Shown in pieces: positions 4,042-62,678 of a stretch of DNA of 64,000 bases. The position numbers and the translations under genes are program-made. The DNA is taken from the IMG/VR virus record IMGVR_UViG_3300045988_036168; one strand, written 5' to 3'. The stretch comes from a virus. Below the pieces are notes generated by a model. It worked only from the letters and a program-made list of their open reading frames with translations. It ran no database searches and was not told where the DNA came from. How positions within the stretch are numbered: the stretch's first letter is position 1; each line of letters starts with the position of its first letter.

Positions 4042-4929
4042 TCAGACGGTGGCGGCAAAGACCTCGTTCAGCATCTCAGTCACCTCATTGTCGGTGGCGA
4101 TAGCGCCGTGCACGACGTCGGTAGGCTCGGTGTAGACCGTGACCTCGTCGCCATTGACCTTGACGTTGCCGTTGGTCTCGGAAGCCTCGACCTTGGTAGC
4201 GCCCTCAGCCACACCGCCGAGCTTGGTGCCCTCAGCGTCGGTCATCAGACGCTTGCCAGCCTCGGCAGCGACGAAGTCGTCAGCCTTCTTACCGGAGTCG
4301 GTCAGGTTGCCGTTATCATCGAGGCTGGCGAAGTTGCCGGAAGTGGCGCTCTTGACCTTGTCGGCCTTACCGCTGATGTCGGTCTTTTCGGGAGTGGGGA
4401 CGTACAGGCCGTCGCCTTTCAGGACGAGGACGTTGCCGTCTTCCTTGGAAATGTTGACCTTGACCTCGACCTCATAACCAGCAATCTCGATGGTGGTGGA
4501 AGCATCCTTGCCGGTTTCCTTGGCCTTGTAGGTATCGACCAGAGCGGCCATGTTCAGGAAGCTGTAGGCAACGCTGTCGGGGTTCTCACCCTTGACGGCG
4601 AGGACCATGACAGGCTTGCCGTCAAGGCTGGGGTTGGTGGAGCCGGGATAGGTGGCTTCAGCCCACTTGAACTTGGCGACGAATTCGGTCTTCGCCTGAT
4701 CGAGGAACATTTCGGTCGGGAAGTCGAACGTGAACGCGGCAGTACCGCTCTTGTCCTCGCTCGTGTAGAGGGAGACGGTATTGCCGTCAACCTTACCGGA
4801 CTTGAACGCGGCAGCAGCGGAGTCAGACGCCTTCTTCAGGTCAGCCTTGGTAGCGTAGTCGCTCTTGACCTTCTCAGCCAGGGCCTTCAGTGCTGCGAGT
4901 TTTGCGAGTTTGGAAACATCGTAAGCCAT
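4042..4929 (-). CDS. tail-fibre-type protein
   Basis: N-terminus MAYDVSKLAKLAALKAL shared with 5308..6756; C-terminal ATDNEVTEMLNEVF cassette shared with 4980..5291 and 6791..7825; TKLGGVAEGATKV fibre motif. Confidence 0.55.
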   Translation of the reverse strand: MAYDVSKLAKLAALKALAEKVKSDYATKADLKKASDSAAAAFKSGKVDGNTVSLYTSEDKSGTAAFTFDFPTEMFLDQAKTEFVAKFKWAEATYPGSTNPSLDGKPVMVLAVKGENPDSVAYSFLNMAALVDTYKAKETGKDASTTIEIAGYEVEVKVNISKEDGNVLVLKGDGLYVPTPEKTDISGKADKVKSATSGNFASLDDNGNLTDSGKKADDFVAAEAGKRLMTDAEGTKLGGVAEGATKVEASETNGNVKVNGDEVTVYTEPTDVVHGAIATDNEVTEMLNEVFAATV

Positions 4930-13365: not shown

Positions 13366-15708
13366 CTACCTTGCATACGCGAGGGCGCGGGCCATCTCGC
13401 CCGTAGAGTCGCCTGCGGCCTTATCCATCGCCGCTGCGGACTTCTGCTGGCCGGCACGGTCGCCCTCGAACTTGTTGTTGATGTTCACGTTCTGCACGAC
13501 GCTCTTGCTGACGCTGTTGCTGCCCATAGCCGTCCGCGCCGTGGTGGGGCTGGCTACGTTGGCCTGCGCCATGATGGACATATCGCCCGTCAGAGCGCCG
13601 AGCGCATCGCGTACCTTGGCCTTGCCCGCGCTGATGCCCTTGGTCATCAGGTCGATCATGTCGGGCATATAGGTGTGGAAGTCACTCAACGGGCCTTCAT
13701 CCGGTTCGGAGAAGCCGAGGAAGCCCTTGATCTTGCTGGCGACGCCGGAGACTGCCTCTCCGACCTTACCGACCGCGCCCTTGATGCCCTCGACAATGTT
13801 GTTGATGATGTCAGCACCCCACTGCAGGGCCTGAGCAGGCAGACTCTTGATCCAGTCGATAGCGGCGGTGAAGCCGGTCACGATGCTGTCCTTGATGTTT
13901 CCAATCGTGCCGGTGATGCCCGACAGGATATTCGTAAACGCCGTCGTGATGGCCGTCCAGATGTTGGTGGCGACACCGGAGATGAACTCCCAGATCGTCG
14001 AGAACACCGTGGAGATGGTCTCCCAGACGGCGGAAACCGCACCGGACACCGTCTCTTTGATGCTGTTCCACACGCTGGAGAAGAACGTGCTGATGCCTTC
14101 CCAGATGCTCGTGAAGAAGTTCCCAATCGACGTGAAGATGTTGACGAAGAAATCCTTGATGGCCGTCCAAATGCGAATGGCAAAGGCTTTGATTTTATCC
14201 CAGTTCTTGTAGAGCAGGATGCCTACGGCAATCAGGGCCATAATCGCCAGAATCACAAGGCCGACAGGGCTGGACACGAACGAGATCACCGCCGAGACGC
14301 CTTTCACGACCGAAGTGACCGTTCGCACTACGGCGATGACGGTCTTGACGGCAGCTACGACGCCTATGATGACGGCGATGATTTTTGCGATGGCCTCGCC
14401 GACCTTCACCCACTTATCTGTGTCGATGTTGCCGTTCGCAATCTGGTCGGCAAGGTTTGCGAACTGCGGGGCGATTTTATCTATAATCTTGCCGATGGCC
14501 TCGAACACCGTCTTGATGACGCTCCAGATGCCTTGAAAAATCGGGATCGCCACATTTTTGATGCCCTTCCATACGGCGGTCAGAATGGTCTTGATGTTCT
14601 CCCAAATCTTGATGATGTTGGCGCGGAACTTATCCACGTCAACACCCGCCCTTTCAAGCAGGCTTCCGAGTAGGGAGTTGTTGCCCTGCATGAAGTTGAT
14701 GAAATCCTCCACCAGCAGAGCAATAATAATGATTTTTGCCGCCATCAAAAGAGCTTCTTTGTTGACTCCCTTTAGCCCCTTGATGATGGCTGCCACGCCA
14801 CTTGTAATCTTGTCGAACTTGAACGCGAATAGTAGTGCGCCTGCCGCAATGGCCAGTAGTTTCAGCAGATTCCCAGATCCGCCGAGCTTGTCGTTGAGCC
14901 ATACGACGGCATTTCGGACGCGGTTCATGACGCGCATCGCCGTGTCGGAGAACTTCACCATCGCATTTGCGATAGTGTTCGTCACTCCGAGCGTACTGTC
15001 CATCTGCGTCAGCCAGAGTCCCCATTCGCTTCGGATGACAGTCAAGGCGTCTGTAATTCTGTATTGAACGCCCCCAAACTTTTGCTCAATGGTGTTGGCA
15101 TTGTCTACGAACGCAGCCTTCAGATCTGCGACCGTCATAGTTCTGGACGATGCCATCTCTTCCAGTTTATCGGAGGTCGTGCCGAGCTTCTTGTTGAGCA
15201 GTTCTACCGCTTCGGGTGAACGCTCCAAAAGCTGGCTGATTGTTTCGCTGTCAACATAGCCCTTGGCGAAGGACTTGTTAATTGCCTCCATAAGGCCGGC
15301 AATATCTTCATTCGTCTTACCGGCGGACTTAAACAGCATTGTTGCCGCATTATTGAACTTGACCGCTTCGTCGATGTTGCCAAACAGCTCCGGGCTTTCG
15401 TGCACGAGGTCGGAAATCACTCCTGCAGTTTCCGCATAGCTGCTTCGCGTTTGCCGAGCAGACTCCATGATTTTCTTCTGAATCTCAGCTTGGTCTCCGA
15501 GCGCGGCGGTTGAGTTCTTGACCTGTTCATTGACGCGCCCGAACTCTTCCACGAGGGCGTTGATCTTGGTCAGGCTGAACCCGATGCCGATTGCGCCGAG
15601 AAGTTTCGTCGCGGTGCTCTTGATGTCAGAGATTGTTCCGTTGACTTTTTTTACGTCGCCTTCGCGTACTTTGAAGCCAACCTCGTTGATAAACTTCACA
15701 ATCGTCAT
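13366..15708 (-). CDS. tail tape measure protein
   Basis: ~780-aa helical/hydrophobic-repeat protein downstream of chaperone pair; start 15708 preferred (AAGGAGGG RBS) over 15729. Confidence 0.85.
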   Translation of the reverse strand: MTIVKFINEVGFKVREGDVKKVNGTISDIKSTATKLLGAIGIGFSLTKINALVEEFGRVNEQVKNSTAALGDQAEIQKKIMESARQTRSSYAETAGVISDLVHESPELFGNIDEAVKFNNAATMLFKSAGKTNEDIAGLMEAINKSFAKGYVDSETISQLLERSPEAVELLNKKLGTTSDKLEEMASSRTMTVADLKAAFVDNANTIEQKFGGVQYRITDALTVIRSEWGLWLTQMDSTLGVTNTIANAMVKFSDTAMRVMNRVRNAVVWLNDKLGGSGNLLKLLAIAAGALLFAFKFDKITSGVAAIIKGLKGVNKEALLMAAKIIIIALLVEDFINFMQGNNSLLGSLLERAGVDVDKFRANIIKIWENIKTILTAVWKGIKNVAIPIFQGIWSVIKTVFEAIGKIIDKIAPQFANLADQIANGNIDTDKWVKVGEAIAKIIAVIIGVVAAVKTVIAVVRTVTSVVKGVSAVISFVSSPVGLVILAIMALIAVGILLYKNWDKIKAFAIRIWTAIKDFFVNIFTSIGNFFTSIWEGISTFFSSVWNSIKETVSGAVSAVWETISTVFSTIWEFISGVATNIWTAITTAFTNILSGITGTIGNIKDSIVTGFTAAIDWIKSLPAQALQWGADIINNIVEGIKGAVGKVGEAVSGVASKIKGFLGFSEPDEGPLSDFHTYMPDMIDLMTKGISAGKAKVRDALGALTGDMSIMAQANVASPTTARTAMGSNSVSKSVVQNVNINNKFEGDRAGQQKSAAAMDKAAGDSTGEMARALAYAR

Positions 15709-30134: not shown

Positions 30135-31559
30135 TCAAATCAGGTTGCCGACGTTGAACGCCGTCTTCGTTTCGATCTCCGCAAATGCGTTGGCGCTTGC
30201 ATCGACCATATCCTTGAACTTTCCGTCTGGGAAGTTCTCAAGCTGCGTAAGATACACCTCGTTCCACTCGCCATACATGATGTCGAAGTTGCCTGCCTGC
30301 CATTGGGCGGCCATAGGCTCGGCTCTGGCCTCTTTACTGCCGCTTTCAGCGACGGCCGTAACGTCGAAGCCAGACAGGAACTTGATGTAGGACTCGGCCT
30401 GCTCTTTACCGGCTTGGCCGGGGTCTTTCGGCAGGCGGACTCGGACGCGCTTGTACGCCGCACGGTCTGCCTGAGCAGTCAGCTTTATCGTCTTTCGCAC
30501 ATCGGAGGCGTTCATCTGCTTGTTGATGACGTCCGCGATGACGTATCGGCCGTTCTTCCGCTTGCCCATCAGGACGCCAGCGGTATAGGCCGGGTCGCCG
30601 TTCTCGGTCTTCTCGGTTGCCGCCAAGTCCCAGCAGCGAACCCACTGGATGACGTCCTGCGGCATGATGGTCAGGATCTCGCCAAGCTGCGTTCTCTTGA
30701 AGAACAGGCCGGCGGCGGCCCTGATCTTCCAGTTGCCTTTGAGGAGTCGCTCGCGCTGGATGACCGACAGTGCCTTCAGGTTTGACAGGTAGCCGGGGTC
30801 GATGCGGAGCAGCTCTTGGTTGTCGTACACAGAAGACATGATGAACGTCACCGACTTCGGCTCGTTCTTCTCTTCCGGTGTGGTCAAATTGAAGCGTTCC
30901 CAGAGTTCCTCTCTGGTGTCCGCCCAGTAAACGACCTCGTCGCGCCGAATCATGTAGCGAATGAGGCCAGACCGCTCAGGGATGGGATAGCCGGTGTCTT
31001 GGTCGATCCACCATGCGATGAACTTCGCCACCCAGCTATCGGCGTCAGGGTTGCAGGTCGCTCGAACGAACGGCCTGACGCCGCAGGTCGAACGGTTACG
31101 GGACAGCATATAGAAGAAAATCTCCTCGCTGAAATGCGTCAGCTCGTCGAAGCCAATCTCGCAGATCTGAGCGCCCTGCCAGTTGTCCAGCTCCTCCGAA
31201 CGCTCGATGTGCGCGAAGGACACCTTGGAAACCTCGTTGCCGTCCTTATCCCGAAACGACCACGTGCCGTCCGAGATTTTCCGCTGTGCCCCGTTGATAC
31301 CGTGGTACATCTTCTGGGCTTCATCCCACAGGCCGCCTTGGGCGAAAATCTGCTTGTAGTTCTTCCTGAAGATCGTGCAGCCGAAGCCCTTGACATTCTT
31401 GTATCTCAATGCCGACAGCAGCAGGCCGTAGGTCTTGCCGCCACCGGCCGCTCCGCCGTAGATGCAGATGTCCGCAGGGGTCGCAAGAAACTTCTCTTGC
31501 GGGCCGAACTGCGGCTTCAGCACACGGACTTTTCTCTCAGGACTCTTGCTGGTCGCCAT
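30135..31559 (-). CDS. terL: terminase large subunit
   Basis: Walker A GGAAGGGKT; ATPase + nuclease layout; 474 aa. Confidence 0.9.
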   Translation of the reverse strand: MATSKSPERKVRVLKPQFGPQEKFLATPADICIYGGAAGGGKTYGLLLSALRYKNVKGFGCTIFRKNYKQIFAQGGLWDEAQKMYHGINGAQRKISDGTWSFRDKDGNEVSKVSFAHIERSEELDNWQGAQICEIGFDELTHFSEEIFFYMLSRNRSTCGVRPFVRATCNPDADSWVAKFIAWWIDQDTGYPIPERSGLIRYMIRRDEVVYWADTREELWERFNLTTPEEKNEPKSVTFIMSSVYDNQELLRIDPGYLSNLKALSVIQRERLLKGNWKIRAAAGLFFKRTQLGEILTIMPQDVIQWVRCWDLAATEKTENGDPAYTAGVLMGKRKNGRYVIADVINKQMNASDVRKTIKLTAQADRAAYKRVRVRLPKDPGQAGKEQAESYIKFLSGFDVTAVAESGSKEARAEPMAAQWQAGNFDIMYGEWNEVYLTQLENFPDGKFKDMVDASANAFAEIETKTAFNVGNLI

Positions 31560-32013
31560 CGTCCCTGCCGTTTGCGGGGAGATAGATCAGAACATCTTCG
31601 GAATCATCGCCGGCGGAGAGGGCGACTTCCTGCCGCTGCGCCCACTGGGTACGCTTGCGGTTGTTCAGCCAATACATAATTGCCATAGTGTCTGGCACTA
31701 TGTTCTTCGTCGTGTTCTTGATGCGGACGGGCTTCGGGTTGCCATCCTTATCCATGTCGATTGTTTTCTCGGTGTCGGTAATCTGGTAGCCCAAAGCCCT
31801 TTGATAAAGTGCCTTCTCGACCTTAGAGTCGGCGATGTTCTTTCCTCGCTCGACTGCGTCGTTCAGGCTCTCATGCTCCTGCTTCCAGCGAATAAAGGTG
31901 CGCGTCGAGATGCCGAAAGCCTCGGCAATCTCGTCGTTCGTGGCTCCCTTGATTGCCAGCGACCAAGCCCAATCGTCGTGGTATTCGGGATTGTACTTGC
32001 TGAGGGCCGGCAT
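31537..32013 (-). CDS. terS: terminase small subunit
   Basis: HTH-type GATNDEIAEAFGISTRTFIRWK; overlaps terL start. Confidence 0.7.
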   Translation of the reverse strand: MPALSKYNPEYHDDWAWSLAIKGATNDEIAEAFGISTRTFIRWKQEHESLNDAVERGKNIADSKVEKALYQRALGYQITDTEKTIDMDKDGNPKPVRIKNTTKNIVPDTMAIMYWLNNRKRTQWAQRQEVALSAGDDSEDVLIYLPANGRDDGDQQES

Positions 32014-32023
32014 ATCACATCAC

Positions 32024-32935
32024 TCACTTTCCTGCCAGATATTCGGTGGCAAGCATTTCGATCAACTGCCAGCGGTTCTTGCTCGTGATGGCACCGTCCT
32101 TCTCGGCCTTCTTGATGGCCTTCGTAATGGTAGCTGCAGACTCCGCAGGGATGGCGTTGCTGCCGAAAATCTTCGTCAGATACGTCCACTCCTCGTCGTC
32201 CTTGAAGCCGACCTCGTCCATCTTCTCCGTGACGCTCTCGATCATGGAGTGGATGGCGGCGCCGACGTTGCGGATGTCGGAGAACTTCTGGTAGCGGGCC
32301 AGCGCCTCGATGAACTGCTTGCACTGCTCGTAGGGCGCGACACCGATAATCTCAGGTGCCGAGGACTCAAGATTCTTCACCAGCGCATCCATGTCCTTCA
32401 CCTGATGCGGCAGGAACGAAAACGTGATGTTCTTGAAGTCGAAATGCACCGCCGGGGACAGCAGCTTATCGTACTGCTCCAGAGGCTCCTCCATGATGTC
32501 CTTGCCGATGAAGCTCTCCAGCATATCATCCACGTCGTCGAGCATCTTGCAGATCTCGCGCAGGATGGACGGGTCATCGAAACCGCTGATGGCGTTGTGT
32601 GCCAACTGCTTCGATGCGATCTTGGAGCGGGACAGGCCGCTCACGTCGATGATGGCGATAATCTCCTTCATGCCGGCGGCGCGGGCGCTCTTGATGCGGT
32701 GGTGGCCGGAGATAATCTCCAGAACGCCGTCTTTCTCCACCAGCAGGGGCAGGCTCTCAAGCTGGCCGCGGTTCTTGATGTTCGCGGTGAGCTGATCCTG
32801 CATTTCCTTCCTCATGATGCGGGCGTTGATGTCCTGCTCCCGCACCTTATCAAGCTGGACTTTGGCGATAATCAGGCCGGTGCCCATGTCGTAAATCTTC
32901 TCGTAGCTCATTGCTGTGCTCTCTTCTGCTGCCAT
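32024..32935 (-). CDS. ParB-like nuclease-domain protein
   Basis: Start MAAEEST (RBS GAGGAGGGAG); GHHRIKSARAAG ParB/Srx motif. Confidence 0.75.
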   Translation of the reverse strand: MAAEESTAMSYEKIYDMGTGLIIAKVQLDKVREQDINARIMRKEMQDQLTANIKNRGQLESLPLLVEKDGVLEIISGHHRIKSARAAGMKEIIAIIDVSGLSRSKIASKQLAHNAISGFDDPSILREICKMLDDVDDMLESFIGKDIMEEPLEQYDKLLSPAVHFDFKNITFSFLPHQVKDMDALVKNLESSAPEIIGVAPYEQCKQFIEALARYQKFSDIRNVGAAIHSMIESVTEKMDEVGFKDDEEWTYLTKIFGSNAIPAESAATITKAIKKAEKDGAITSKNRWQLIEMLATEYLAGK

Positions 32936-34302
32936 TGTTTCTCCCTCCTCAGCCATTCGGCCAACGTAGCCTTCTCGTCACGGCCAGCCACAAGGGCGGC
33001 CTCATAGGTCAGCTTGTACCCGTTCTTCGCGTCCTCCTGCCGGTTGACCAGCTTCATGATGCCGCGAACCTCTTTGTTCTCGGCGTACTTCGTGAGCATG
33101 GCTGTACGCATCTTCGTGACCTTCTCTTGGTCGATGTCGTCGAGCAGCGTGTCCACGAAGCTCTGGTTCTGGGCCAGCATATAGCAGAGACGGCCGAGGC
33201 GGTACAGCTTGTGCGGTGCCTTCATGACGTACCACACAAAGATGGAGTCCGCAGCCATCTTCGAGATGCCGAAGACCGCGGCCACATAGCCGTCGATCAG
33301 GACAGCACGGTTGTAGGTCGCCTGCGAGCCTACGAAGTTGTGCGTCCAGAGCATCCGGTAATACTGCGCGTTGGCGCCGGCGATCTGGATAATTCGGATG
33401 TCGCTGTCCTCTGTGATCTCATAGTCGAGCGGGAGCATACTGCATTTCAGAGGCTCCAGCTTGCCCTCCTGCGGGCGCTTGATTTTCTTCCCTTTGGCAA
33501 GGGCCACGGCTTCCTCTTCCCTGTTCGTCGTGATGTACGAGTTCAGGTCGGCGCGTGTCCCAGAGCGGGCAAAGATGGTGTGGCCGACGGCCTCACCTGC
33601 CCGTTTCTCCTGATAGCACAGGAGCAGAGCGGGAGCGTCCATCATCATGTCATAGAGCTGCTGATGGCCGGTCTCAGGGTCGAACATACCGTAGGGTGGC
33701 TCTTTCCAAGTCATCTTTCCCTGCGTGTCGTAGAACTTCTCATAGCCGGCGAAATACGTCGGCGGATTCGCCACGATGATCGTATGCGGGTCGTCCTTCA
33801 CCTCACGGAGATGATCCCACATATCCAGCGGGCGGTAGCTCATACCACCGAGCAGGCTCTTCGTGGCCTCAAGCTGTCGGCGTATGCTCTCGATGTGCTC
33901 TTCACGCCTGTCGTGCAGGTCGCGCAGGATGTTGTGGAAATACTCGTTCCCTGCGCTCTTCGATGTCCGCAGATAGATTTGCGCGTACAGAGCTACGGCC
34001 GGGTCTAACAGCTCTTCATCGGAGAAGCCCTGCGCGTGGATCTGCAGCGGTTCGAGAGACTGGCCCGTGATGGCGTAGCCCATCACCGAGGTCATCATGT
34101 TCACGTCGCTGGTTTCGATCTGCTCAGGCTTGAACCCCGACTGGACTGCCAGATTCGCCATAGCGAATGTACCGGCGCATGGCTCTACGAACCGCGTGTA
34201 CCCAGAACGCCGAGCGGTCTTAATGAGCTCAATCAAAAACTTCTGCTCAACACCGTTCAGGCACCCGAGGAACATCGCTCCGGGGTCCATAAAAAACGCC
34301 AT
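32908..34302 (-). CDS. DNA methyltransferase, Dam-like (N6-A or N4-C class)
   Basis: Motif I-like FVEPCAGTFA and motif IV-like IIVANPPTYF; paired with ParB-like gene. Confidence 0.5.
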   Translation of the reverse strand: MAFFMDPGAMFLGCLNGVEQKFLIELIKTARRSGYTRFVEPCAGTFAMANLAVQSGFKPEQIETSDVNMMTSVMGYAITGQSLEPLQIHAQGFSDEELLDPAVALYAQIYLRTSKSAGNEYFHNILRDLHDRREEHIESIRRQLEATKSLLGGMSYRPLDMWDHLREVKDDPHTIIVANPPTYFAGYEKFYDTQGKMTWKEPPYGMFDPETGHQQLYDMMMDAPALLLCYQEKRAGEAVGHTIFARSGTRADLNSYITTNREEEAVALAKGKKIKRPQEGKLEPLKCSMLPLDYEITEDSDIRIIQIAGANAQYYRMLWTHNFVGSQATYNRAVLIDGYVAAVFGISKMAADSIFVWYVMKAPHKLYRLGRLCYMLAQNQSFVDTLLDDIDQEKVTKMRTAMLTKYAENKEVRGIMKLVNRQEDAKNGYKLTYEAALVAGRDEKATLAEWLRREKQWQQKRAQQ

Positions 34303-34384: not shown

Positions 34385-35056
34385 TTACATCTCGTCGATC
34401 AGCTTATCGACGATGTCCAGACAGGTCATCGCTGTCCTGCCCTTCTCATTCCAGTATTCCGCAGCGCCACCCCTAACGCTGTCGGCTACCGTTTTCACCA
34501 TCAGGCACGGAACGTCGTTGCGGTCGCAGGTCAGCAGGATCGCCGCCGCTTCCATATCGCACACATCCGCGCCGAACTCTTTGTTGAGCCAGAGCTTTTC
34601 CTCGGCCTTGCCCATGAACTTATCGCCAGAGGCGCAGCACACATGACGCAGGTTCGGGAACACTCGGCTTGCCATCTCCATAAGCCGTTCATCGGTCTGG
34701 AGCCGCCAGTCTGGGTACTCCATGTATTGACCAACAGGCACACCGTCCACGTCGGATAGGTCGTACTGCCAATGCACCACGCAGTCAACGAGGCAAGGCT
34801 CGTCGGCCATCAGGTCTTCTCTGCAGCCTCCCACTACGCCGTAATTAAGAACCGCAGCGACTTCGTAGCGGTCGATAAGGTATTGTGTTGCGGCGGCCGC
34901 GAAAATCTCACCTGCGCCGCTATACAGGGCGTAGACTTGGCTTTTGGCGGTTTGATAAAGCACTGTGCCGTAGCCGTCGTTCAAATCGTAGCCTTCGCCG
35001 TATTTCTGGCGCATGGCCTCTTCCTCGACCGCTACGATCAGTCCGATCTTCCTCAT
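34385..35056 (-). CDS. mtnN: 5'-methylthioadenosine/S-adenosylhomocysteine nucleosidase
   Basis: Start MRKIGLIVAVEEEA (RBS GAGGAG); SGAGEIFAAAAT, SGDKF, DMEAAAI patterns of the PNP_UDP_1/Pfs family. Confidence 0.75.
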   Translation of the reverse strand: MRKIGLIVAVEEEAMRQKYGEGYDLNDGYGTVLYQTAKSQVYALYSGAGEIFAAAATQYLIDRYEVAAVLNYGVVGGCREDLMADEPCLVDCVVHWQYDLSDVDGVPVGQYMEYPDWRLQTDERLMEMASRVFPNLRHVCCASGDKFMGKAEEKLWLNKEFGADVCDMEAAAILLTCDRNDVPCLMVKTVADSVRGGAAEYWNEKGRTAMTCLDIVDKLIDEM

Positions 35057-35072
35057 GGAGTCACTCCTCGAT

Positions 35073-35108
35073 GCAAGAGAAAAGGCAGCCGGTTCGCCGA
35101 CTGCCTTT
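35073..35108 (-). terminator. rho-independent terminator closing the tRNA-like array
   Basis: AAAGGCAG-12 nt-CTGCCTTT stem, then UUCUCUU on minus strand; only ~17 nt upstream of the mtnN start codon. Confidence 0.55.
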
Positions 35109-35117
35109 CTCGTATTC

Positions 35118-35191
35118 TGGACCGGGCCCCAGCTTGCGAGGCTGGAACGCCTGCCGGGGAGGCAGGAATGATGCACTTTCACCAAGCCCGG
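35118..35191 (-). tRNA. non-canonical tRNA-Gly-like element A (anticodon-position CCC), CCA encoded
   Basis: Cloverleaf CCGGGCU-UG-GUGA-AAGUGCA-UCAU-U-CCUGC-CUCCCCG-GCAGG-CGUU-CCAGC-CUCGCAA-GCUGG-GGCCCGG-U-CCA; no G18G19, no T-Psi-C-type loop. Confidence 0.5.
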
Positions 35192-35194
35192 ATA

Positions 35195-35267
35195 TGGACC
35201 GGGAATCCGCTTACGGGGCGGAAACTCTCGACAGGATGCCGAGCGTGATACCTTTCGCTATTCCCGG
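35195..35267 (-). tRNA. non-canonical tRNA-Gly-like element C (anticodon-position UCC), CCA encoded
   Basis: CCGGGAA-UA-GCGA-AAGGUA-UCAC-G-CUCGG-CAUCCUG-UCGAG-AGUU-UCCGC-CCCGUAA-GCGGA-UUCCCGG-U-CCA; A at position 33. Confidence 0.45.
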
Positions 35268-35292
35268 ATGTTGCCCCGATGGTCGGGGCCTA

Positions 35293-35369
35293 TGGCACGG
35301 ACGGTTGGGAATCGAACCCACCACACGCGGTTTTGGAGACCGTGTCGCCACCTTGGGACATTCGCCCGT
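35293..35369 (-). tRNA. tRNA-Trp(CCA)-like, irregular
   Basis: ACGGGCG..CUCCAAA loop..GGUUCGAUUCC..CGUCCGU-G-CCA; A1:U72, G73, canonical T-loop and GG in D-loop; only 4 clean bp in anticodon stem and a G.A mismatch in T-stem. Confidence 0.55.
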
Positions 35370-35372
35370 ATA

Positions 35373-35446
35373 TGGACCGGAACCCTACTTGCGAGGTAGG
35401 AACTCCCTCAAGGATAGAGGGCGTGATGCTCTTTCACCAGTTCCGG
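35373..35446 (-). tRNA. non-canonical tRNA-Gly-like element B (anticodon-position UCC), CCA encoded
   Basis: CCGGAAC-UG-GUGA-AAGAGCA-UCAC-G-CCCUC-UAUCCUU-GAGGG-AGUU-CCUAC-CUCGCAA-GUAGG-GUUCCGG-U-CCA; all stems perfect. Confidence 0.5.
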
Positions 35447-35454
35447 GTATCTGA

Positions 35455-35611
35455 TGTGCGGGCGGGGATTTGTCACCCCGCATAGCACAGGCAGCGTACA
35501 ACGTGCTTTCTTCCCGTCCGAGGTAGCTACTTAACCCCAATAGGTCTGCGTTCTGTTGTGCCCTTCTGCGCCGCATACCCTTGCTGCGTCTACCTATTCC
35601 GCCACCGCACA
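35455..35611 (-). ncRNA. 157-nt tRNA-flavoured element (Leu-type D-arm, T-arm-like 3' end, unresolved ~105-nt core)
   Basis: 5' UGUGCGG-UG-GCGGAAUAGGUAGACGC (class II tRNA D-arm) and 3' GCGGGG-UGACAAAU-CCCCGC-CCGCACA close a 7-bp acceptor-like helix; no anticodon arm found by eye. Confidence 0.3.
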
Positions 35612-35626
35612 TCACCGGCCTGCCGG

Positions 35627-36082
35627 TTACAGCAGGCTCAGTTGCTCAACTTTCTCTTCAGGCGGTTTTGCCGCCTTAGGCTGCTTCAAAGCGTCAGTCT
35701 CAGGCATCTCCTCGATGACCTCGCCGGTGTGGGCCAGCCACCACTCCGCAAACAACGTGCGGTGGCACCAGTTCTCAGGCTTACGGATGTCCTCAAAGCA
35801 GAGCAGAACCAGCTTCTTGTCCTCCTCCTGAGCCTTGGCGTCAAGCCGCTGGACGATGCCGATAATCTTATCGACGCCGATCTTATCCAGCTTCTTGAAA
35901 TACTCGGCCTTGTACTCCTCATAGCCCAGCTTCAGCATATCGTACCGCGGAGCCAGCGCGTAGCACTGTTCACGGATCTCGTACCCAGTTGAAAATCTGG
36001 GCTTGCCGACGCTGATGCCGACGGGATAATACCCATCGTTTCGGAGTTCCTTGTTGCTATACCGACCTGTCATAATTGCCAT
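35627..36082 (-). CDS. DUF488-family protein
   Basis: LVLLCFEDIRKPENWCHRTLFAEWW matches DUF488 LLC.E....CHR signature; RBS AGGAGG. Confidence 0.65.
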   Translation of the reverse strand: MAIMTGRYSNKELRNDGYYPVGISVGKPRFSTGYEIREQCYALAPRYDMLKLGYEEYKAEYFKKLDKIGVDKIIGIVQRLDAKAQEEDKKLVLLCFEDIRKPENWCHRTLFAEWWLAHTGEVIEEMPETDALKQPKAAKPPEEKVEQLSLL

Positions 36083-36368: not shown

Positions 36369-37538
36369 TTACTTGATGGCTTCGAGCAGCTTCTCCGCGG
36401 TGTCCGTCTGCTCCCAAGTACGCTCCTCGCCGATGACGTTGCCGAAGTGTCCGTAGGCGGAAGTGTTCTTGTAGACGGGCTTGCGAAGGTCAAGCCAGTT
36501 GATAATGCCTCTGGGGGTCAGATCATAGACGGCCTCGACGGCGTCGCAGATCTTATCCTCGGCGTACTTGCCGGTGCCGTAGGTATCGACTCGGATGCTC
36601 ACGGGCTGCGGTACACCGATTGCATAGGCGAGCTGGACCTGACACTTATCAGCGATTCCGGCAGCCACGATGTTCTTTGCGATGTGGCGGGCTGCATACG
36701 CTGCAGAGCGGTCAACCTTGGTGGGGTCTTTACCAGAGAAGGCGCCACCACCGTGCGCGGCATAGCCGCCGTAGGTGTCAACGATGATCTTACGTCCGGT
36801 GAGGCCCGAGTCCGCGGCAGGGCCACCCTTGACAAATCGGCCCGTGGGATTGATGAACAGGCTGTAAGTGACCACGTCCATATCAGGCCGATAGGTCAGC
36901 AGTTCGTCGAGGACAGGCTTGATGACGTGTTTCTGCAGGGGTTCGATCAGATCCTCCGGGGCAACACATTCCTCATGCTGGGTAGAGATGACGACGGTGT
37001 CAACCCGTACCGGGTTGCCCCCCTCGTCATACTCCACCGTTACCTGTGTCTTGCCATCGGGGAGGATGTGAGGGATCGTGCCATCCTTTCTCTTCTTCAT
37101 CAGCAGGTATGCCATCTTATTCGCCAGCGTGATAGGCAGGGGCATCAGATCCGGTGTCTCGTTACAGGCGTAGCCGAACATCATTCCCTGATCCCCCGCT
37201 CCGCCGACTCCATCGTTGGTTCCCATTGCGATGTCGGGACTCTGCTCGTCGATAGCTACCATCACCGCGCAGGTGTTGCCGTCAAATCCCGCCTTGGGGC
37301 TGTCATAGCCGATGTCCTTCAGGACGCCGCGGGCGATACCGGCAAAGTCGATGTAGTGCTCCGTGCTGATCTCGCCCATGACCAGCACCATGCCGGTCGT
37401 GCAGCAGGTCTCGCAGGCCACACGGCCATTCGGGTCATGCTTCATGACCTCGTCGAGCACTGCGTCAGAGATGCGGTCGCACACTTTATCGGGATGGCCT
37501 TCCGTGACCGATTCCGAAGTGAAGAGTATCTTGCTCAT
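36369..37538 (-). CDS. metK: S-adenosylmethionine synthetase
   Basis: [22 protein letters not shown] and full-length MetK pattern (389 aa). Confidence 0.95.
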
Positions 37539-38010: not shown

Positions 38011-38534
38011 GCCTTATCCTCCTTGATGTAGTTTTCATTGAGCCAGTCGATCCATCCAGAGATACCTCCGCAGGCGTCCAGCACGTCATCCGCGTCATCC
38101 ACGATGCTCGATCCGTGCCAATGCCCCTTCGGGTCTTTCACGAATGCCTCGATCCAGCTATTGTTCTCAAATGCCACCTTGTTCTCAGCCGTTTCGTCTG
38201 CGTTGAGGGCGTCCCACAGCTCCGCGTCGCTCTTGAAGGTAGTCCTCAGAGTGTCAGATGCCGCCATGTTCATCGCGCCGGTGTTCTGCTTGTTCTTATA
38301 CAGGAAATCGTGGCCGTTCATGAAGCCGACGATCTCGACGTCTCCATGTACCTCGACGGACACCTCATAGCCCTTGTATCTCAGGCCACCGATATGGCCG
38401 CCGTACCACACGCAATCGAGGTGGTCATCGTCAATGAAAATGCTCTCCTCGGTCAGAAGCTCCGCGCCGAACGCCTTCGCGTCGGCCTGCATCTTGCGGT
38501 AGCGCCGCTCGATCTTATGCCGGCTCATAGCCAT
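38007..38534 (-). CDS. hypothetical protein
   Basis: 175 aa, co-oriented. Confidence 0.45.
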   Translation of the reverse strand: MAMSRHKIERRYRKMQADAKAFGAELLTEESIFIDDDHLDCVWYGGHIGGLRYKGYEVSVEVHGDVEIVGFMNGHDFLYKNKQNTGAMNMAASDTLRTTFKSDAELWDALNADETAENKVAFENNSWIEAFVKDPKGHWHGSSIVDDADDVLDACGGISGWIDWLNENYIKEDKA

Positions 38535-39055
38535 CTCTCCTTCACCATCATATAGGCGTACACCGCCTTAACAGTTTCCTCCAGATTGCGGTTGCTGAAC
38601 CACGCATCCGCCATGACGTGCAGGTCCTCAAACTCCTTGGCATCGAACTGCAAGCGCTCTTTCACCGCCTCCGGTGCATCTCCGCGTTCGAGCATTCTCT
38701 CAGTTCTCTCCTCCTGTGGGGCATAGATGGCAATGACTACCACCTCTTTGCTGCCGGAATATCTCTCCCACATATACCGGATTCCAGCGGGGTCGATCAC
38801 ATAGATGTCGTTCTCCTCAATGACAGACTCCGGTACGCCGTAGCGGTAGCCGTTGTAAAGCGTAAACGCGCACATCTTGCCAGCCGCATCGAACTGCTCG
38901 GGCGTAACGAAGATATGGCCGGGTTCGCCATCGAAACGGGGCGGGCGCTCCGTGTATGACCAAACTTCCTTCAGGCCGTACCTCTGCGTCAGCTCGCGGG
39001 CGACGCTGGATTTTCCAGAACCGGACGGGCCGGCAAGCAGGTAGATGTTTTTCAT
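38525..39055 (-). CDS. guanylate-kinase-like P-loop kinase
   Basis: Walker A GPSGSGKS near N-terminus; 176 aa. Confidence 0.6.
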   Translation of the reverse strand: MKNIYLLAGPSGSGKSSVARELTQRYGLKEVWSYTERPPRFDGEPGHIFVTPEQFDAAGKMCAFTLYNGYRYGVPESVIEENDIYVIDPAGIRYMWERYSGSKEVVVIAIYAPQEERTERMLERGDAPEAVKERLQFDAKEFEDLHVMADAWFSNRNLEETVKAVYAYMMVKERWL

Positions 39056-61676: not shown

Positions 61677-62415
61677 CAGGGTCGTCCATCACGCACTGCT
61701 CCCCGTTGGGGAACATCTGACTTCCAATGCGATTGTACTCCTCGAAAATCTTGTCGAACGCCTCCTGCCAGACCTCGTCGTGGTCGTGCTCAACGCCGAC
61801 CGCTACATGGGCAAGTTCGTGTGCAAGGATTTCGACCGCGTTGGCGACCTCAAGGCTCGGCTTGACGAAGACAGCATCAGATCCATCATCGGCAAAGTCA
61901 GTCAGGCCGTACACGGGCTTGCCATCCTCTTCGTCGCGGATCTGCGGCTCCCAGTAAATCTCGCAGTCCTTGTCTGGGTACAACTTCTTGAACGCTCCCC
62001 AGACCATAGCGAACATATCGTTCTGGAACGGCGCGATCAGCCGGTTTTTCAGATCCAGCGGAGAGAGCCGCGTCTCCTCGTACATCCGCAGGCGCTCTCT
62101 GGTCTCTGCGAAGGCCCACGCCATCGTGTAGAGCAGGGCAACCACGCCCTCAATCGTATCAATGCCGTCGAACAGCCACTCAGAGGTCGCACACGAAAGC
62201 TCCAAATCGTCTTTGAGGCGTACATTCTCCAAGGTTTCGGGGCTGTACTTCTGCAGAATGTCCCGCGTCACGTTGCTCAGGGTCGCGTCTGAGAAGTCAG
62301 GCGCCGGCCCATAGCCGCGGACGTAAACCTCTTCGTCCTTGATGAACACCAAGTTCAGCGCCGCCTCCACATTGTCCTGCGGGTCGTCGGTCACAATGGG
62401 CACATACTTTTTCAT
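61666..62415 (-). CDS. zincin-like metallopeptidase-motif protein
   Basis: ILAHELAHVAVGVEH (HExxH) near C-terminus. Confidence 0.5.
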   Translation of the reverse strand: MKKYVPIVTDDPQDNVEAALNLVFIKDEEVYVRGYGPAPDFSDATLSNVTRDILQKYSPETLENVRLKDDLELSCATSEWLFDGIDTIEGVVALLYTMAWAFAETRERLRMYEETRLSPLDLKNRLIAPFQNDMFAMVWGAFKKLYPDKDCEIYWEPQIRDEEDGKPVYGLTDFADDGSDAVFVKPSLEVANAVEILAHELAHVAVGVEHDHDEVWQEAFDKIFEEYNRIGSQMFPNGEQCVMDDPDEK

Positions 62416-62678
62416 TTCGCTTCCTCCTTCTCCTGCTCCCAGCGCAGGAACTCAACGCTTCCGATGACCCACTTCAGGGTCTTCCCGCCGTACATTTTCT
62501 GCAACTGCTCAAACACGTTTTCGGGGACGCTGAAGCTGTCGCAGACGCAGACCGCCGGCACCTCGCCACGGCTGTTGCGCACCAGTACCAGATCATCCTT
62601 CTTCAAGTCTCTCTCCTCGGGTACTCCGAAAAGGTAGTGCTGCGCATCGTTCAGGTGATGCACGATGACGATTTTCAT
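62412..62678 (-). CDS. hypothetical protein
   Basis: 88 aa, overlapping stop/start. Confidence 0.4.
   Translation of the reverse strand: MKIVIVHHLNDAQHYLFGVPEERDLKKDDLVLVRNSRGEVPAVCVCDSFSVPENVFEQLQKMYGGKTLKWVIGSVEFLRWEQEKEEAK

Follow-up and report, generated by a model that had tools for sequence, protein, structure and literature searches.

A 64,000-nucleotide stretch of viral DNA (IMG/VR virus record IMGVR_UViG_3300045988_036168; "the window" below means this whole stretch) carries on its minus strand, at 35118-35610, three cloverleaf RNAs of about 74 nt (A, C and B) together with a tRNA-Trp and a 156-nt element. The three cloverleaves resemble tRNA-Gly, and the pattern of conservation among them and their relatives fits RNAs selected to be glycylated rather than to decode. 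They are linked to the gene for DamGNAT, a member of a large uncharacterised family in which a Dam-like domain is fused to a GNAT domain, and this association is, as far as could be checked, new. By analogy with phage Mu Mom, we give about an even chance to the proposal that the Gly-like RNAs are dedicated non-ribosomal aminoacyl donors for DNA hypermodification. An earlier note on this DNA had read A, B and C as chargeable, non-ribosomal tRNA-Gly paralogues, an interpretation that our analysis supports in part: it seems right in spirit and wrong about the likely client.

Three Gly-like cloverleaves in a compact array

The array fills the 570-nt gap between a DUF488-family gene (35627-36082) and a gene encoding a methylthioadenosine/S-adenosylhomocysteine (MTA/SAH) nucleosidase-like protein (MtnN; 34385-35056), and its five back-to-back elements all lie where the earlier note had placed them. 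In minus-strand order, the 156-nt element is followed by B, the tRNA-Trp, a small hairpin, C, A and a hairpin with a U tract. Element A (35118-35191, minus strand) has the acceptor CCGGGCU/GGCCCGG, U73 and an encoded CCA, the D loop AAGUGCA, the T loop CUCGCAA, and the anticodon CCC (ACC in relatives) with C37 in the loop CUCCCCG; it is assigned on its minimum-free-energy fold, a covariance model and covariation. Elements C and B, assigned on fold and covariance model, both have the anticodon UCC with A33 and U37. In C (35195-35267, minus strand), the acceptor is CCGGGAA/UUCCCGG with U73 and CCA, and the D, anticodon and T loops are AAGGUA, CAUCCUG and CCCGUAA; its D stem has one C.A mismatch in the window and is GUGA/UCAC in relatives. 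In B (35373-35446, minus strand), the acceptor is CCGGAAC/GUUCCGG with U73 and CCA, and the corresponding loops are AAGAGCA, UAUCCUU and CUCGCAA.

All three fit the arrangement 7/2/4/loop/4/1/5/7/5/4/5/7/5/7 plus U73 and CCA. The cloverleaf is the minimum-free-energy structure of A and B, and in C it appears in the centroid except for the D arm. The loops had been read accurately, down to the anticodons CCC, UCC and UCC, A33 in two copies, the lack of G18G19 in A and B, and T loops that are not of the T-Psi-C type. Following the encoded U73-CCA, the UAU spacer that had been described is seen 3' of B and of C, and GAAUAC stands 3' of A. A D-loop/T-loop pairing, suggested by co-variation of GCA and GUA between copies, was considered and dropped, as the pattern is broken in relatives.

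ARAGORN run on the region reported tRNA-Trp(CCA) alone and missed A, B and C. Rfam yielded nothing at gathering thresholds over the entire 64-kb window, no family in a local search at E<=10 for any of A, B, C and the 156-nt element, and no known family at E<=1 for the relatives of the Gly-like RNAs and of the 156-nt element. With no Rfam match for A, B and C, the array is therefore not a single known large RNA, the alternative against which the earlier note had wanted its reading checked. A blastn search of the region against isolated phages returned only the tRNA-Trp part (in Bacillus phage Mater) and an unrelated coding match. The Gly-like RNAs form a family that has no Rfam match and does not surface in the searchable literature; this is an annotation gap, in which a conserved RNA family has been overlooked by standard tRNA finders and Rfam.

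From the window copies we made a covariance model (A scoring 93.8 bits and B 97.3 bits), and in 14 related IMG/VR contigs, recovered via the DUF488 protein, it found precisely three copies each. The sequence of B is identical across 12 loci. An exact-pattern scan located Gly-like RNA in 35 viral-contig stretches and in 15 bacterial-genome stretches, the latter among 185,579 species genomes. Many of these relatives belong to a variant of 69-73 nt whose T arm is short and whose D loop has 5 nt, and ARAGORN calls some of the Lachnospiraceae-phage copies of this variant (about 70 nt) tRNA-Gly. The bacterial genomes belong to Oscillospiraceae and Lachnospiraceae, among them the complete Clostridiales bacterium CCNA10 and Blautia species; these are the likely hosts.

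What selection keeps in the Gly-like RNAs

Matches to the Gly-like RNAs were merged into an alignment of 59 matches, representing 51 distinct sequences. Standard pairs form in 99.7% of cells, and compensatory double changes occur in 17 of the 21 pairs across the 51 distinct sequences. None of 500 shuffles reached the observed pairing values, and when the 3' partners were moved by one to three columns, pairing fell to 31-50%. The alignment was fitted to the covariance model and is biased toward structure to that extent; given the size of the effect and how many pair types occur, there is little room for doubt that the cloverleaves are real. They have the stems of a canonical tRNA (7-bp acceptor, 4-bp D, 5-bp anticodon and 5-bp T), and the compensatory changes between copies noted earlier thus extend to related phages, in which the cloverleaves are conserved and covary.

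This covariation bears directly on the idea that A, B and C are degenerate tRNA copies, that is, decaying and functionless pseudo-tRNAs. Such decay would agree with their going unrecognised by standard tRNA finders and Rfam, but it is countered by compensatory substitutions in 17 of 21 pairs among 51 distinct sequences, from phages of two bacterial families, and by the invariance of the acceptor end and of C35. The covariation effectively refutes pseudogene decay, to which we assign a negligible probability.

Nucleotide tallies were made on the 50 distinct Gly-class sequences. In all 50, C1, C2, G3, G4, U8, A14, C35, U73 and CCA are invariant, as is pair 3:70; C36 is present in 49, and pair 2:71 in 49 (one has A at position 71). 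The pair C1:G72 occurs in 51 of 51 sequences. Bacterial glycyl-tRNA synthetase (GlyRS) reads U73, C2:G71, G3:C70, C35 and C36 (PMC9976931), all of which are present, as the earlier note had it.

The nucleotides associated with decoding are treated differently by selection. Position 34 is unconstrained (U, C, A or G), position 33 is U in 33 sequences, A in 14, G in two and C in one (17 of 50 non-U), and 31 of 50 have a pyrimidine at position 37, which in A, B and C is C37 or U37. The D loops, of 5-7 nt, are mostly without GG, and most are too short for G18G19; the T loops are variable and do not conform to T-Psi-C-R-A (CUCGCAA, CCCGUAA, CUCAUCA, UUCAUUG and others). Measured against a canonical elongator, A, B and C lack an RF00005 match at the gathering score, ARAGORN detection, the combination of U33 with purine-37, and the elbow nucleotides (G18G19 in A and B, T54-Psi55-C56...A58 in all three). 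With the identity nucleotides fixed and those serving the ribosome, the U-turn and the elbow relaxed, the pattern therefore fits RNAs selected for glycylation and not for decoding. This conservation matches the earlier description of the RNAs as chargeable-looking but poor ribosomal substrates, a description in which the invariant identity nucleotides and CCA would speak for charging and the relaxed U33 and purine-37 against decoding.

Linkage to DamGNAT

By tblastn, every locus with enough flank had the same module order, DUF488 - Gly-like tRNA(s) - [MtnN] - DamGNAT - ParB - TerS, and this strict linkage covers the 35 viral-contig stretches and the 15 stretches in species genomes recovered by exact pattern. 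Lachnospiraceae phages have one tRNA-like gene directly between DUF488 and DamGNAT. The RNA starts 15-60 nt past the DUF488 stop, after a conserved AUAAUAU, and a terminator-like hairpin then follows. The one DUF488 homologue that lacks a neighbouring DamGNAT gene (L015) serves as a negative control, and no tRNA-like gene is present there. In the window, all on the minus strand, DamGNAT (32908-34302) lies two genes downstream of the array, the gene for its conserved downstream partner, a ParB-N-domain protein (32024-32956), has a start that overlaps the DamGNAT stop, and the small terminase gene (TerS; 31537-32013) comes next. An attP or integration-site remnant was considered and rejected: among the bacterial-genome matches with enough flank on both sides, to which the check was limited, the RNAs sit between DUF488 and DamGNAT of the prophage-like module, not at an element boundary.

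Such a location, 15-60 nt past the DUF488 stop, behind the AUAAUAU leader and ahead of the terminator hairpin, would also suit folds that act as RNA punctuation, either as RNase P/Z sites or as 3' stabilisers that split the early or middle transcript of DUF488 from a late DamGNAT-terminase operon. In a variant of this explanation the RNA would itself be the substrate of DamGNAT; NPPY-type methyltransferases also act on RNA. An acceptor/T minihelix would suffice for punctuation, however, and the invariant C35/C36 (or CUU with A73), U73 and encoded CCA would be unneeded; moreover, in one divergent phage (L068) the tRNA stays beside DamGNAT though DUF488 is 2.4 kb away. We consider punctuation, in either form, very unlikely.

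The association extends well beyond close relatives. Twelve divergent DamGNAT representatives (30-60% identity) were sampled from phages of Clostridia, Faecalibacterium and Microbacterium, and in 11 of the 12 clades a tRNA or tRNA-like gene lies either circularly adjacent to DamGNAT or at most about 500 nt upstream of it. These tRNAs usually begin with C1:G72-C2:G71-G3:C70 and are of 'Gly', 'Lys', 'Pro' or 'Arg' type. Gly-type examples are L071 (40% identity; Gly-like, with A33 and C37, missed by ARAGORN), L067 (37%; a canonical tRNA-Gly(CCC)), L074 (32%; tRNA-Gly(UCC) with G33) and L079 (30%; tRNA-Gly(ACC) and a second RNA, CCGGGCG...CGCCCGG-U-CCA with T loop CUCGUCA, which the Gly-class covariance model matches at 43 bits). 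The 'Pro' type is found in L070 (44%; UGG, CCGAAAG...A73-CCA) and L066 (40%; CGG, CCGGGUU...A73), the 'Arg' type in L068/L069 (33%; CCU, CCGCCCG...U73-CCA, U37), where in L068 the tRNA adjoins DamGNAT in spite of the distant DUF488 gene, and the 'Lys' type in Faecalibacterium phage FP_Brigit (59%; CUU, CCGCCGA...A73-CCA, D loop without GG). Three more have aberrant anticodon or other loops: L077 (32%; CCGCCGU...U73-CCA, 6-nt loop), Microbacterium phage ValentiniPuff (31%; CCGCCGG...U73, 6-nt anticodon loop), where gene 1 is DamGNAT and the RNA is located at the right end of the genome, and L080 (30%; CCGCCUC...GGCGG-U-CCA), which has a different gene neighbourhood. L073 (35%) has no tRNA. A related-locus search with a single distant protein, P0146, gave no matches, and an alignment of 20 distant sequences contained no conserved stretch on which to base one.

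Two of these RNAs can be located in named isolates. The non-canonical tRNA of FP_Brigit (L075) is at 13917-13993 of NC_047909.1, where the returned feature table lists no tRNA, and that of ValentiniPuff (L076), without encoded CCA, is at 62354-62426 of MH825712.1.

Among 80 FP_Brigit-like viral loci, a scan that required a CCG or ACG start found a CCG...CGG tRNA within 700 nt upstream of DamGNAT in 68; ARAGORN alone found 46, and the tRNAs it detected, under no start constraint, began with CCG in all but one. The anticodon of the 28 distinct FP_Brigit-like tRNAs is CUU in 25, UGG in two and UUU in one; A73 is present in 28 of 28 and an encoded CCA in 21, while A33 occurs in four and U37 in 13. 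This class follows the same rule as the Gly class, with conservation of synthetase identity and of the acceptor end and relaxation at the nucleotides used in decoding. A common protein partner that reads the acceptor end would select for the C1:G72-C2:G71-G3:C70 shared by Gly, Lys, Arg and Pro types.

Ordinary codon supplementation is a rival explanation, and on that account the RNAs would be odd but functional elongators for the minor codons GGA and GGG (and UGG) in late genes, their position reflecting timing. The open reading frames (ORFs) of the window contain 173 GGA and 170 GGG codons versus 690 GGC, the anticodons are typical of rare-codon phage tRNAs, several Lachnospiraceae-phage copies are called tRNA-Gly by ARAGORN, and canonical tRNAs occupy the position in some clades (L067, FP_Brigit). 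Against this stand A33 in 14 of 50 and pyrimidine-37 in 31 of 50 Gly-class sequences, the missing G18G19 and T54/A58, and the 6-nt anticodon loops of several clades. Half of the 'Lys' class has U37, and A37 is required for N6-threonylcarbamoyladenosine (t6A) in Lys-class tRNAs. In addition, C1:G72 is unexpected for Gly, Lys or Arg elongators, and three paralogues would be excessive for two minor codons. We judge codon supplementation to be distinctly unlikely.

The DamGNAT protein

DamGNAT is a protein of 464 aa in which the 'Phage DNA adenine methylase-like domain 1' (PF22555, 2.7e-73) is fused to the 'Phage GNAT-like domain' (PF22559, 1.4e-30), and it retains the EPCAGTF and NPPTY (adenine-pocket) motifs. 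With 789 representatives at E<=0.001 in a library clustered at 50% identity, the family runs to about 790 protein clusters; it is abundant in human-gut Clostridia phages, with further members in phages of Actinobacteria and from soil. A Foldseek search with the DamGNAT model (pLDDT 69.5) identified a generic GNAT fold C-terminally; the top matches were all GNAT acetyltransferases, at TM scores of about 0.55-0.6 normalised to the target, which places the domain in the GNAT fold. A sequence search of the PDB with DamGNAT gave no matches. At the site where Q/RxxGxG/A is usual, the family consensus is RLxRL with no conserved glycine, and on our reading of this sequence the GNAT domain is unlike those that typically use CoA. 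Membership of the Mom family (PF25680), together with its catalytic R111/S124 context, was rejected, an hhalign comparison of the family profile with Mu Mom giving a probability of 0.2.

A proposed role as private aminoacyl donors

Mu Mom, a GNAT protein, transfers glycine from Gly-tRNA-Gly to N6 of deoxyadenosine in double-stranded DNA, giving 6-NcmdA (PMC13219725), and it probably reads only the 3' acceptor end of the tRNA (PMC13219725 and a 2023 preprint). The tight and wide linkage of the Gly-like RNAs to DamGNAT points to a Mom-like, tRNA-dependent DNA modification and not to cell-wall synthesis. RNA structure, conservation pattern, gene linkage and domain content are demonstrated here; how the RNAs are processed and charged, that they stay out of translation, and that they supply a group to DNA and on which base, we infer as follows.

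The Gly-like RNAs would most likely be transcribed together with the DUF488 gene, since a promoter scan found no minus-strand promoter between that gene and the array, and host tRNA-processing enzymes could then excise them at the short UAU spacers. Host GlyRS would charge them via U73, C2:G71, G3:C70, C35 and C36, and the degenerate elbow, A33 and pyrimidine-37 would exclude them from the ribosomal pool. Their activated glycine would be handed to DamGNAT, encoded two genes downstream, whose Dam-like domain (NPPTY) is predicted to flip out an adenine in phage DNA and whose GNAT domain may move the aminoacyl group to that adenine, as Mom does with host Gly-tRNA-Gly. The outcome would be a restriction-evading hypermodification of DNA, installed near packaging, as the ParB-like and terminase genes that follow suggest. 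The authors of the Mom studies raise the problem of Mom co-opting host translation (PMC13219725 and the 2023 preprint); with a non-ribosomal tRNA pool of its own, the phage would leave translation undisturbed late in infection. The acceptor top C1:G72-C2:G71-G3:C70, unusual for Gly, Lys and Arg tRNAs, may be the mark that DamGNAT recognises.

With 'Lys', 'Pro' and 'Arg' tRNAs in sister clades, different phages may therefore use different donor amino acids. Tentatively, at somewhat under an even chance, we extend the proposal to a large unrecognised family of phage DNA-hypermodification systems, in which DamGNAT would aminoacylate DNA adenines from phage-encoded non-decoding tRNAs and the donor would be switched between clades. 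The tRNAs of such a family, a notion we hold with the same reserve, would be marked by C1:G72-C2:G71-G3:C70 and carry Gly, Lys, Pro or Arg by way of swapped synthetase identity elements.

The inverted first pair lends itself to a further explanation, in which the RNAs are anti-defence tRNAs, either decoys for, or resistant substitutes against, toxins that read the acceptor stem or anticodon loop of tRNA-Gly. The targets would be toxSAS enzymes such as FaRel2, the GNAT toxins TacT/AtaT or anticodon nucleases (for which decoys had been suggested before), and the altered pair 1 and loops would block recognition or titrate the toxin. FaRel2 is an enzyme of a gut Firmicute that picks out tRNA-Gly through G1-C72, C2-G71, G4-C69 and G5-C68, and phages are known to counter defences aimed at tRNAs by bringing alternative ones (PMC11559606); TacT recognises U73 and G71 of tRNA-Gly (PMC9976931). 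The phage RNAs retain C2:G71, G4:C69 and U73 but invert 1:72, and several copies per phage and high copy conservation suit titration. Yet a resistant substitute must decode, and A33, pyrimidine-37 and 6-nt anticodon loops argue otherwise; in a decoy, the invariant C35/C36 would be unnecessary; and the strict, deep linkage to DamGNAT across differing amino-acid types would be left unexplained. Like the phage tRNAs that evade or titrate tRNA-targeting defences, for example as countermeasures to PARIS and retrons (for the specificity of FaRel2, PMC11559606), the present RNAs are phage-borne variants changed at acceptor positions that toxins read. Those tRNAs, however, do decode, standing in for host tRNAs that have been cleaved or blocked, whereas these look unfit to decode and are tied to one enzyme gene. 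The anti-defence explanation seems to us an unlikely one.

Comparison with known systems

The proposed donor system shares with Mu Mom a phage GNAT-fold enzyme, a late or packaging-proximal position and an anti-restriction logic; tRNA-Gly is the likely partner and adenine the likely target, the latter suggested by the Dam-like NPPTY domain of DamGNAT. It differs in that the GNAT domain belongs to PF22559, not to Mom's PF25680, with no detectable profile similarity, and in that this domain is joined to a Dam-like one in a single protein, which has ParB-like and DUF488 proteins as partners. Mom draws on the ordinary tRNA-Gly isoacceptors of its host, whereas here the tRNAs are phage-encoded and non-canonical, and of Lys, Pro or Arg type in sister clades. 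The Mom modification has been demonstrated, and that of the present system is predicted.

Staphylococcus aureus has three paralogues of tRNA-Gly, unusual in their D and T arms, that are kept off EF-Tu and provide a glycine supply of their own for Fem transferases; this non-proteinogenic (NP) lineage is described as confined to staphylococci (PMC7826273). The earlier note likened A, B and C to them. In its logic the analogy holds: like NP1-3, which serve FmhB/FemA/FemB, the window RNAs are extra tRNA-Gly paralogues (UCC) with idiosyncratic D and T arms, a likeness drawn from the description of NP1-3, and as with NP1-3 they may be GlyRS-charged, partitioned from EF-Tu and the ribosome, and feed a GNAT-fold aminoacyl-transferase. 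The partner does not carry over. NP1-3 are chromosomal, occur in staphylococci only and serve peptidoglycan synthesis, whereas the present RNAs are phage-borne in Clostridia, have C1:G72 and frequent A33 and pyrimidine-37, and are linked to a gene for a DNA-enzyme-like protein, not Fem. Use in peptidoglycan synthesis was rejected, no supporting Fem-like gene having been found in the conserved module and the likely hosts being Oscillospiraceae and Lachnospiraceae.

Set beside canonical bacterial tRNA-Gly, the RNAs have in common the cloverleaf, the 7-bp acceptor, C2:G71, G3:C70, U73, C35, C36 and a 4-nt variable region, and differ in C1:G72, a short D loop without G18G19 in most copies, odd T loops, A33 and pyrimidine-37. 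The 5' part of element C, CCGGGAAUAGC, presumably resembles E. coli tRNA-Gly (GCGGGAAUAGC) closely.

Several points weigh against our donor proposal. With regard to the RNAs, the anticodons (UCC/CCC, CUU, CGG and CCU) are also typical of codon-supplementing phage tRNAs, and GGA and GGG are minor codons here; some clades have a canonical tRNA (L067, tRNA-Gly CCC; FP_Brigit, whose tRNA passes Rfam at 62 bits) and L073 has none. We know of no precedent for lysyl-, prolyl- or arginyl-adenine in DNA. As to linkage, the counts are not independent events, the synteny being shared: broad synteny is common to all these phages, and part of the linkage may be inherited gene order. A terminator-like hairpin stands between tRNA and DamGNAT, so the RNA is probably co-transcribed with DUF488 and not with the enzyme gene. 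With regard to the enzyme, Pfam puts Mom in PF25680 and the window protein in PF22559, Foldseek on the DamGNAT model showed no Fem, L/F-transferase or Mom specificity, and the donor could be an acyl-CoA. Finally, G1-C72 is reported to be important for GlyRS in E. coli and T. thermophilus (PMC9976931), and this identity element, the only one lacking, is replaced by C1:G72 throughout.

If the proposal is true, virus-encoded tRNAs serve as private aminoacyl cofactors for DNA chemistry, extending the 2023/2026 discovery of Mom's use of charged tRNA, and they would be the first case in a virus of tRNAs that evolved for a cofactor role alone. Very common gut phages would contain a series of new DNA bases made from amino acids, from glycine and perhaps also lysine, proline or arginine, with effects on restriction evasion, sequencing artefacts and phage engineering. 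The RNAs would also offer a natural model of a chargeable, translation-invisible tRNA, reveal acceptor-stem features that a GNAT transferase reads, and inform orthogonal tRNA design. FP_Brigit and ValentiniPuff, which carry the module, are in culture collections, and the proposal is directly testable in them.

Other elements of the array

The tRNA-Trp(CCA) (35293-35369, minus strand), called by ARAGORN and supported by sequence and fold, is a conserved member of related arrays. It combines the identity-relevant G73 with the CCA anticodon, an encoded CCA and a canonical T loop (UUCGAUU), and is mildly atypical in its anticodon stem, where the uppermost pair is an A27.C43 mismatch and four Watson-Crick pairs are left; its derivation from tRNA-Trp and its shortened anticodon stem had both been recognised earlier. 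The best Rfam match here, and the only one of the tRNA clan in the local search at E<=10, was the tRNA-Sec model, at 36.5 bits. Between the tRNA-Trp and C, the fold shows a small G+C hairpin (35273-35289, minus strand), and relatives have a hairpin at this position with a different sequence.

The long element at the head of the array (35455-35610, minus strand), which we term tRNA-Leu-like, is supported by its fold and a five-sequence alignment. The description of it as tRNA-flavoured stands, with acceptor, D arm and T arm around an insert; its length is 156 nt rather than 157. The acceptor is GUGCGG/CCGCAC with A73 and no encoded CCA, the D arm GGCGGAAUAGGUAGACGC looks canonical, the T arm is CGGGG-UGACAAAU-CCCCG with a non-canonical loop, and a variable insert of about 90 nt replaces the anticodon and variable arms. 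In the alignment, the acceptor is invariant, three T-stem pairs show compensatory change, and the middle is variable. Its 5' part, GUGCGGUGGCGGAAUAGGUAGACGC, we take to resemble tRNA-Leu, and the element may be another case of a non-decoding tRNA.

The same Leu-like scaffold occurs in four related arrays, L013 (6596-6770), L057, L049 and L063, with acceptor, start of the D arm and non-canonical T arm kept and a central 60-130 nt entirely different between related phages; three relatives have a D-loop insert with GGGGAGUGCU. On its 5' side, these more distant arrays, L013 (6480-6590) and also L049, L057 and L063, share a conserved non-coding motif, ...CGCUGAAAACUGCGC...GGCGUGUGACAAUCUAAGCGG, that is absent from the window and looks like a further structured RNA or leader. 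These arrays also contain an RNA with a 7-bp acceptor and a U-UCA, not U-CCA, end (L013, 7033-7104), a tRNA with an insertion of about 60 nt in which the Rfam tRNA model covers 138 nt (L057, 5332-5469), and an apparently canonical tRNA-Leu(CAA) (L063, about 4430-4520, minus strand).

The array is closed 3' of A by the G+C hairpin GGCAGUCGG-CGAA-CCGGCUGCC and a U tract (35074-35105, minus strand). It had been taken for a terminator; the structure is there and is kept in relatives with compensatory changes, but a simple terminator scan did not call it, and we term it terminator-like on grounds of its sequence and conservation only. Rfam gave it a weak ctRNA_p42d match (E=0.089). A mechanical ORF list runs the nucleosidase ORF (34385-35185, minus strand) to a TTG at 35185, across this hairpin and element A. 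The start is instead ATG 35056, because Pfam matches from residue 3 and tblastn relatives align from residue 1; automatic annotation could thus conceal element A within a coding sequence.

Neighbouring genes

The MTA/SAH-nucleosidase-like gene (34385-35056, minus strand; PNP_UDP_1, Pfam 1.4e-22) is an optional member of the module, restricted to the Oscillospiraceae-phage branch. Upstream of the array, a gene for S-adenosylmethionine (SAM) synthetase (MetK; 36369-37538, minus strand; Pfam) is a neighbour, and FP_Brigit also has MetK by its module. The presence of MetK and MtnN flanking the array suggests heavy SAM use, with a boosted SAM supply and by-product removal for the Dam-like domain; this domain may consume SAM too, so that the final adduct may be more complex.

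Directly upstream of the array, the DUF488-family gene (35627-36082, minus strand), with which the conserved module opens, is assigned by synteny and by Pfam DUF488-N3a, which is weak in the window and clear in relatives. Its product has invariant C95...R100 and W105-C106-H107-R108. Foldseek with the AlphaFold model (pLDDT 83) gave no significant PDB match, the weak best matches (E 0.2-1) being a GPN-loop GTPase and Cys-based dual-specificity phosphatases, and a PDB sequence search with the protein found nothing significant; a phosphatase-like role on tRNA or DNA is conceivable from the model. A few genes upstream of MetK, a P-loop nucleotide/nucleoside-kinase-like gene (38525-39055, minus strand) with AAA_18 and guanylate-kinase matches is less conserved than its neighbours, at about 66% identity in close relatives.

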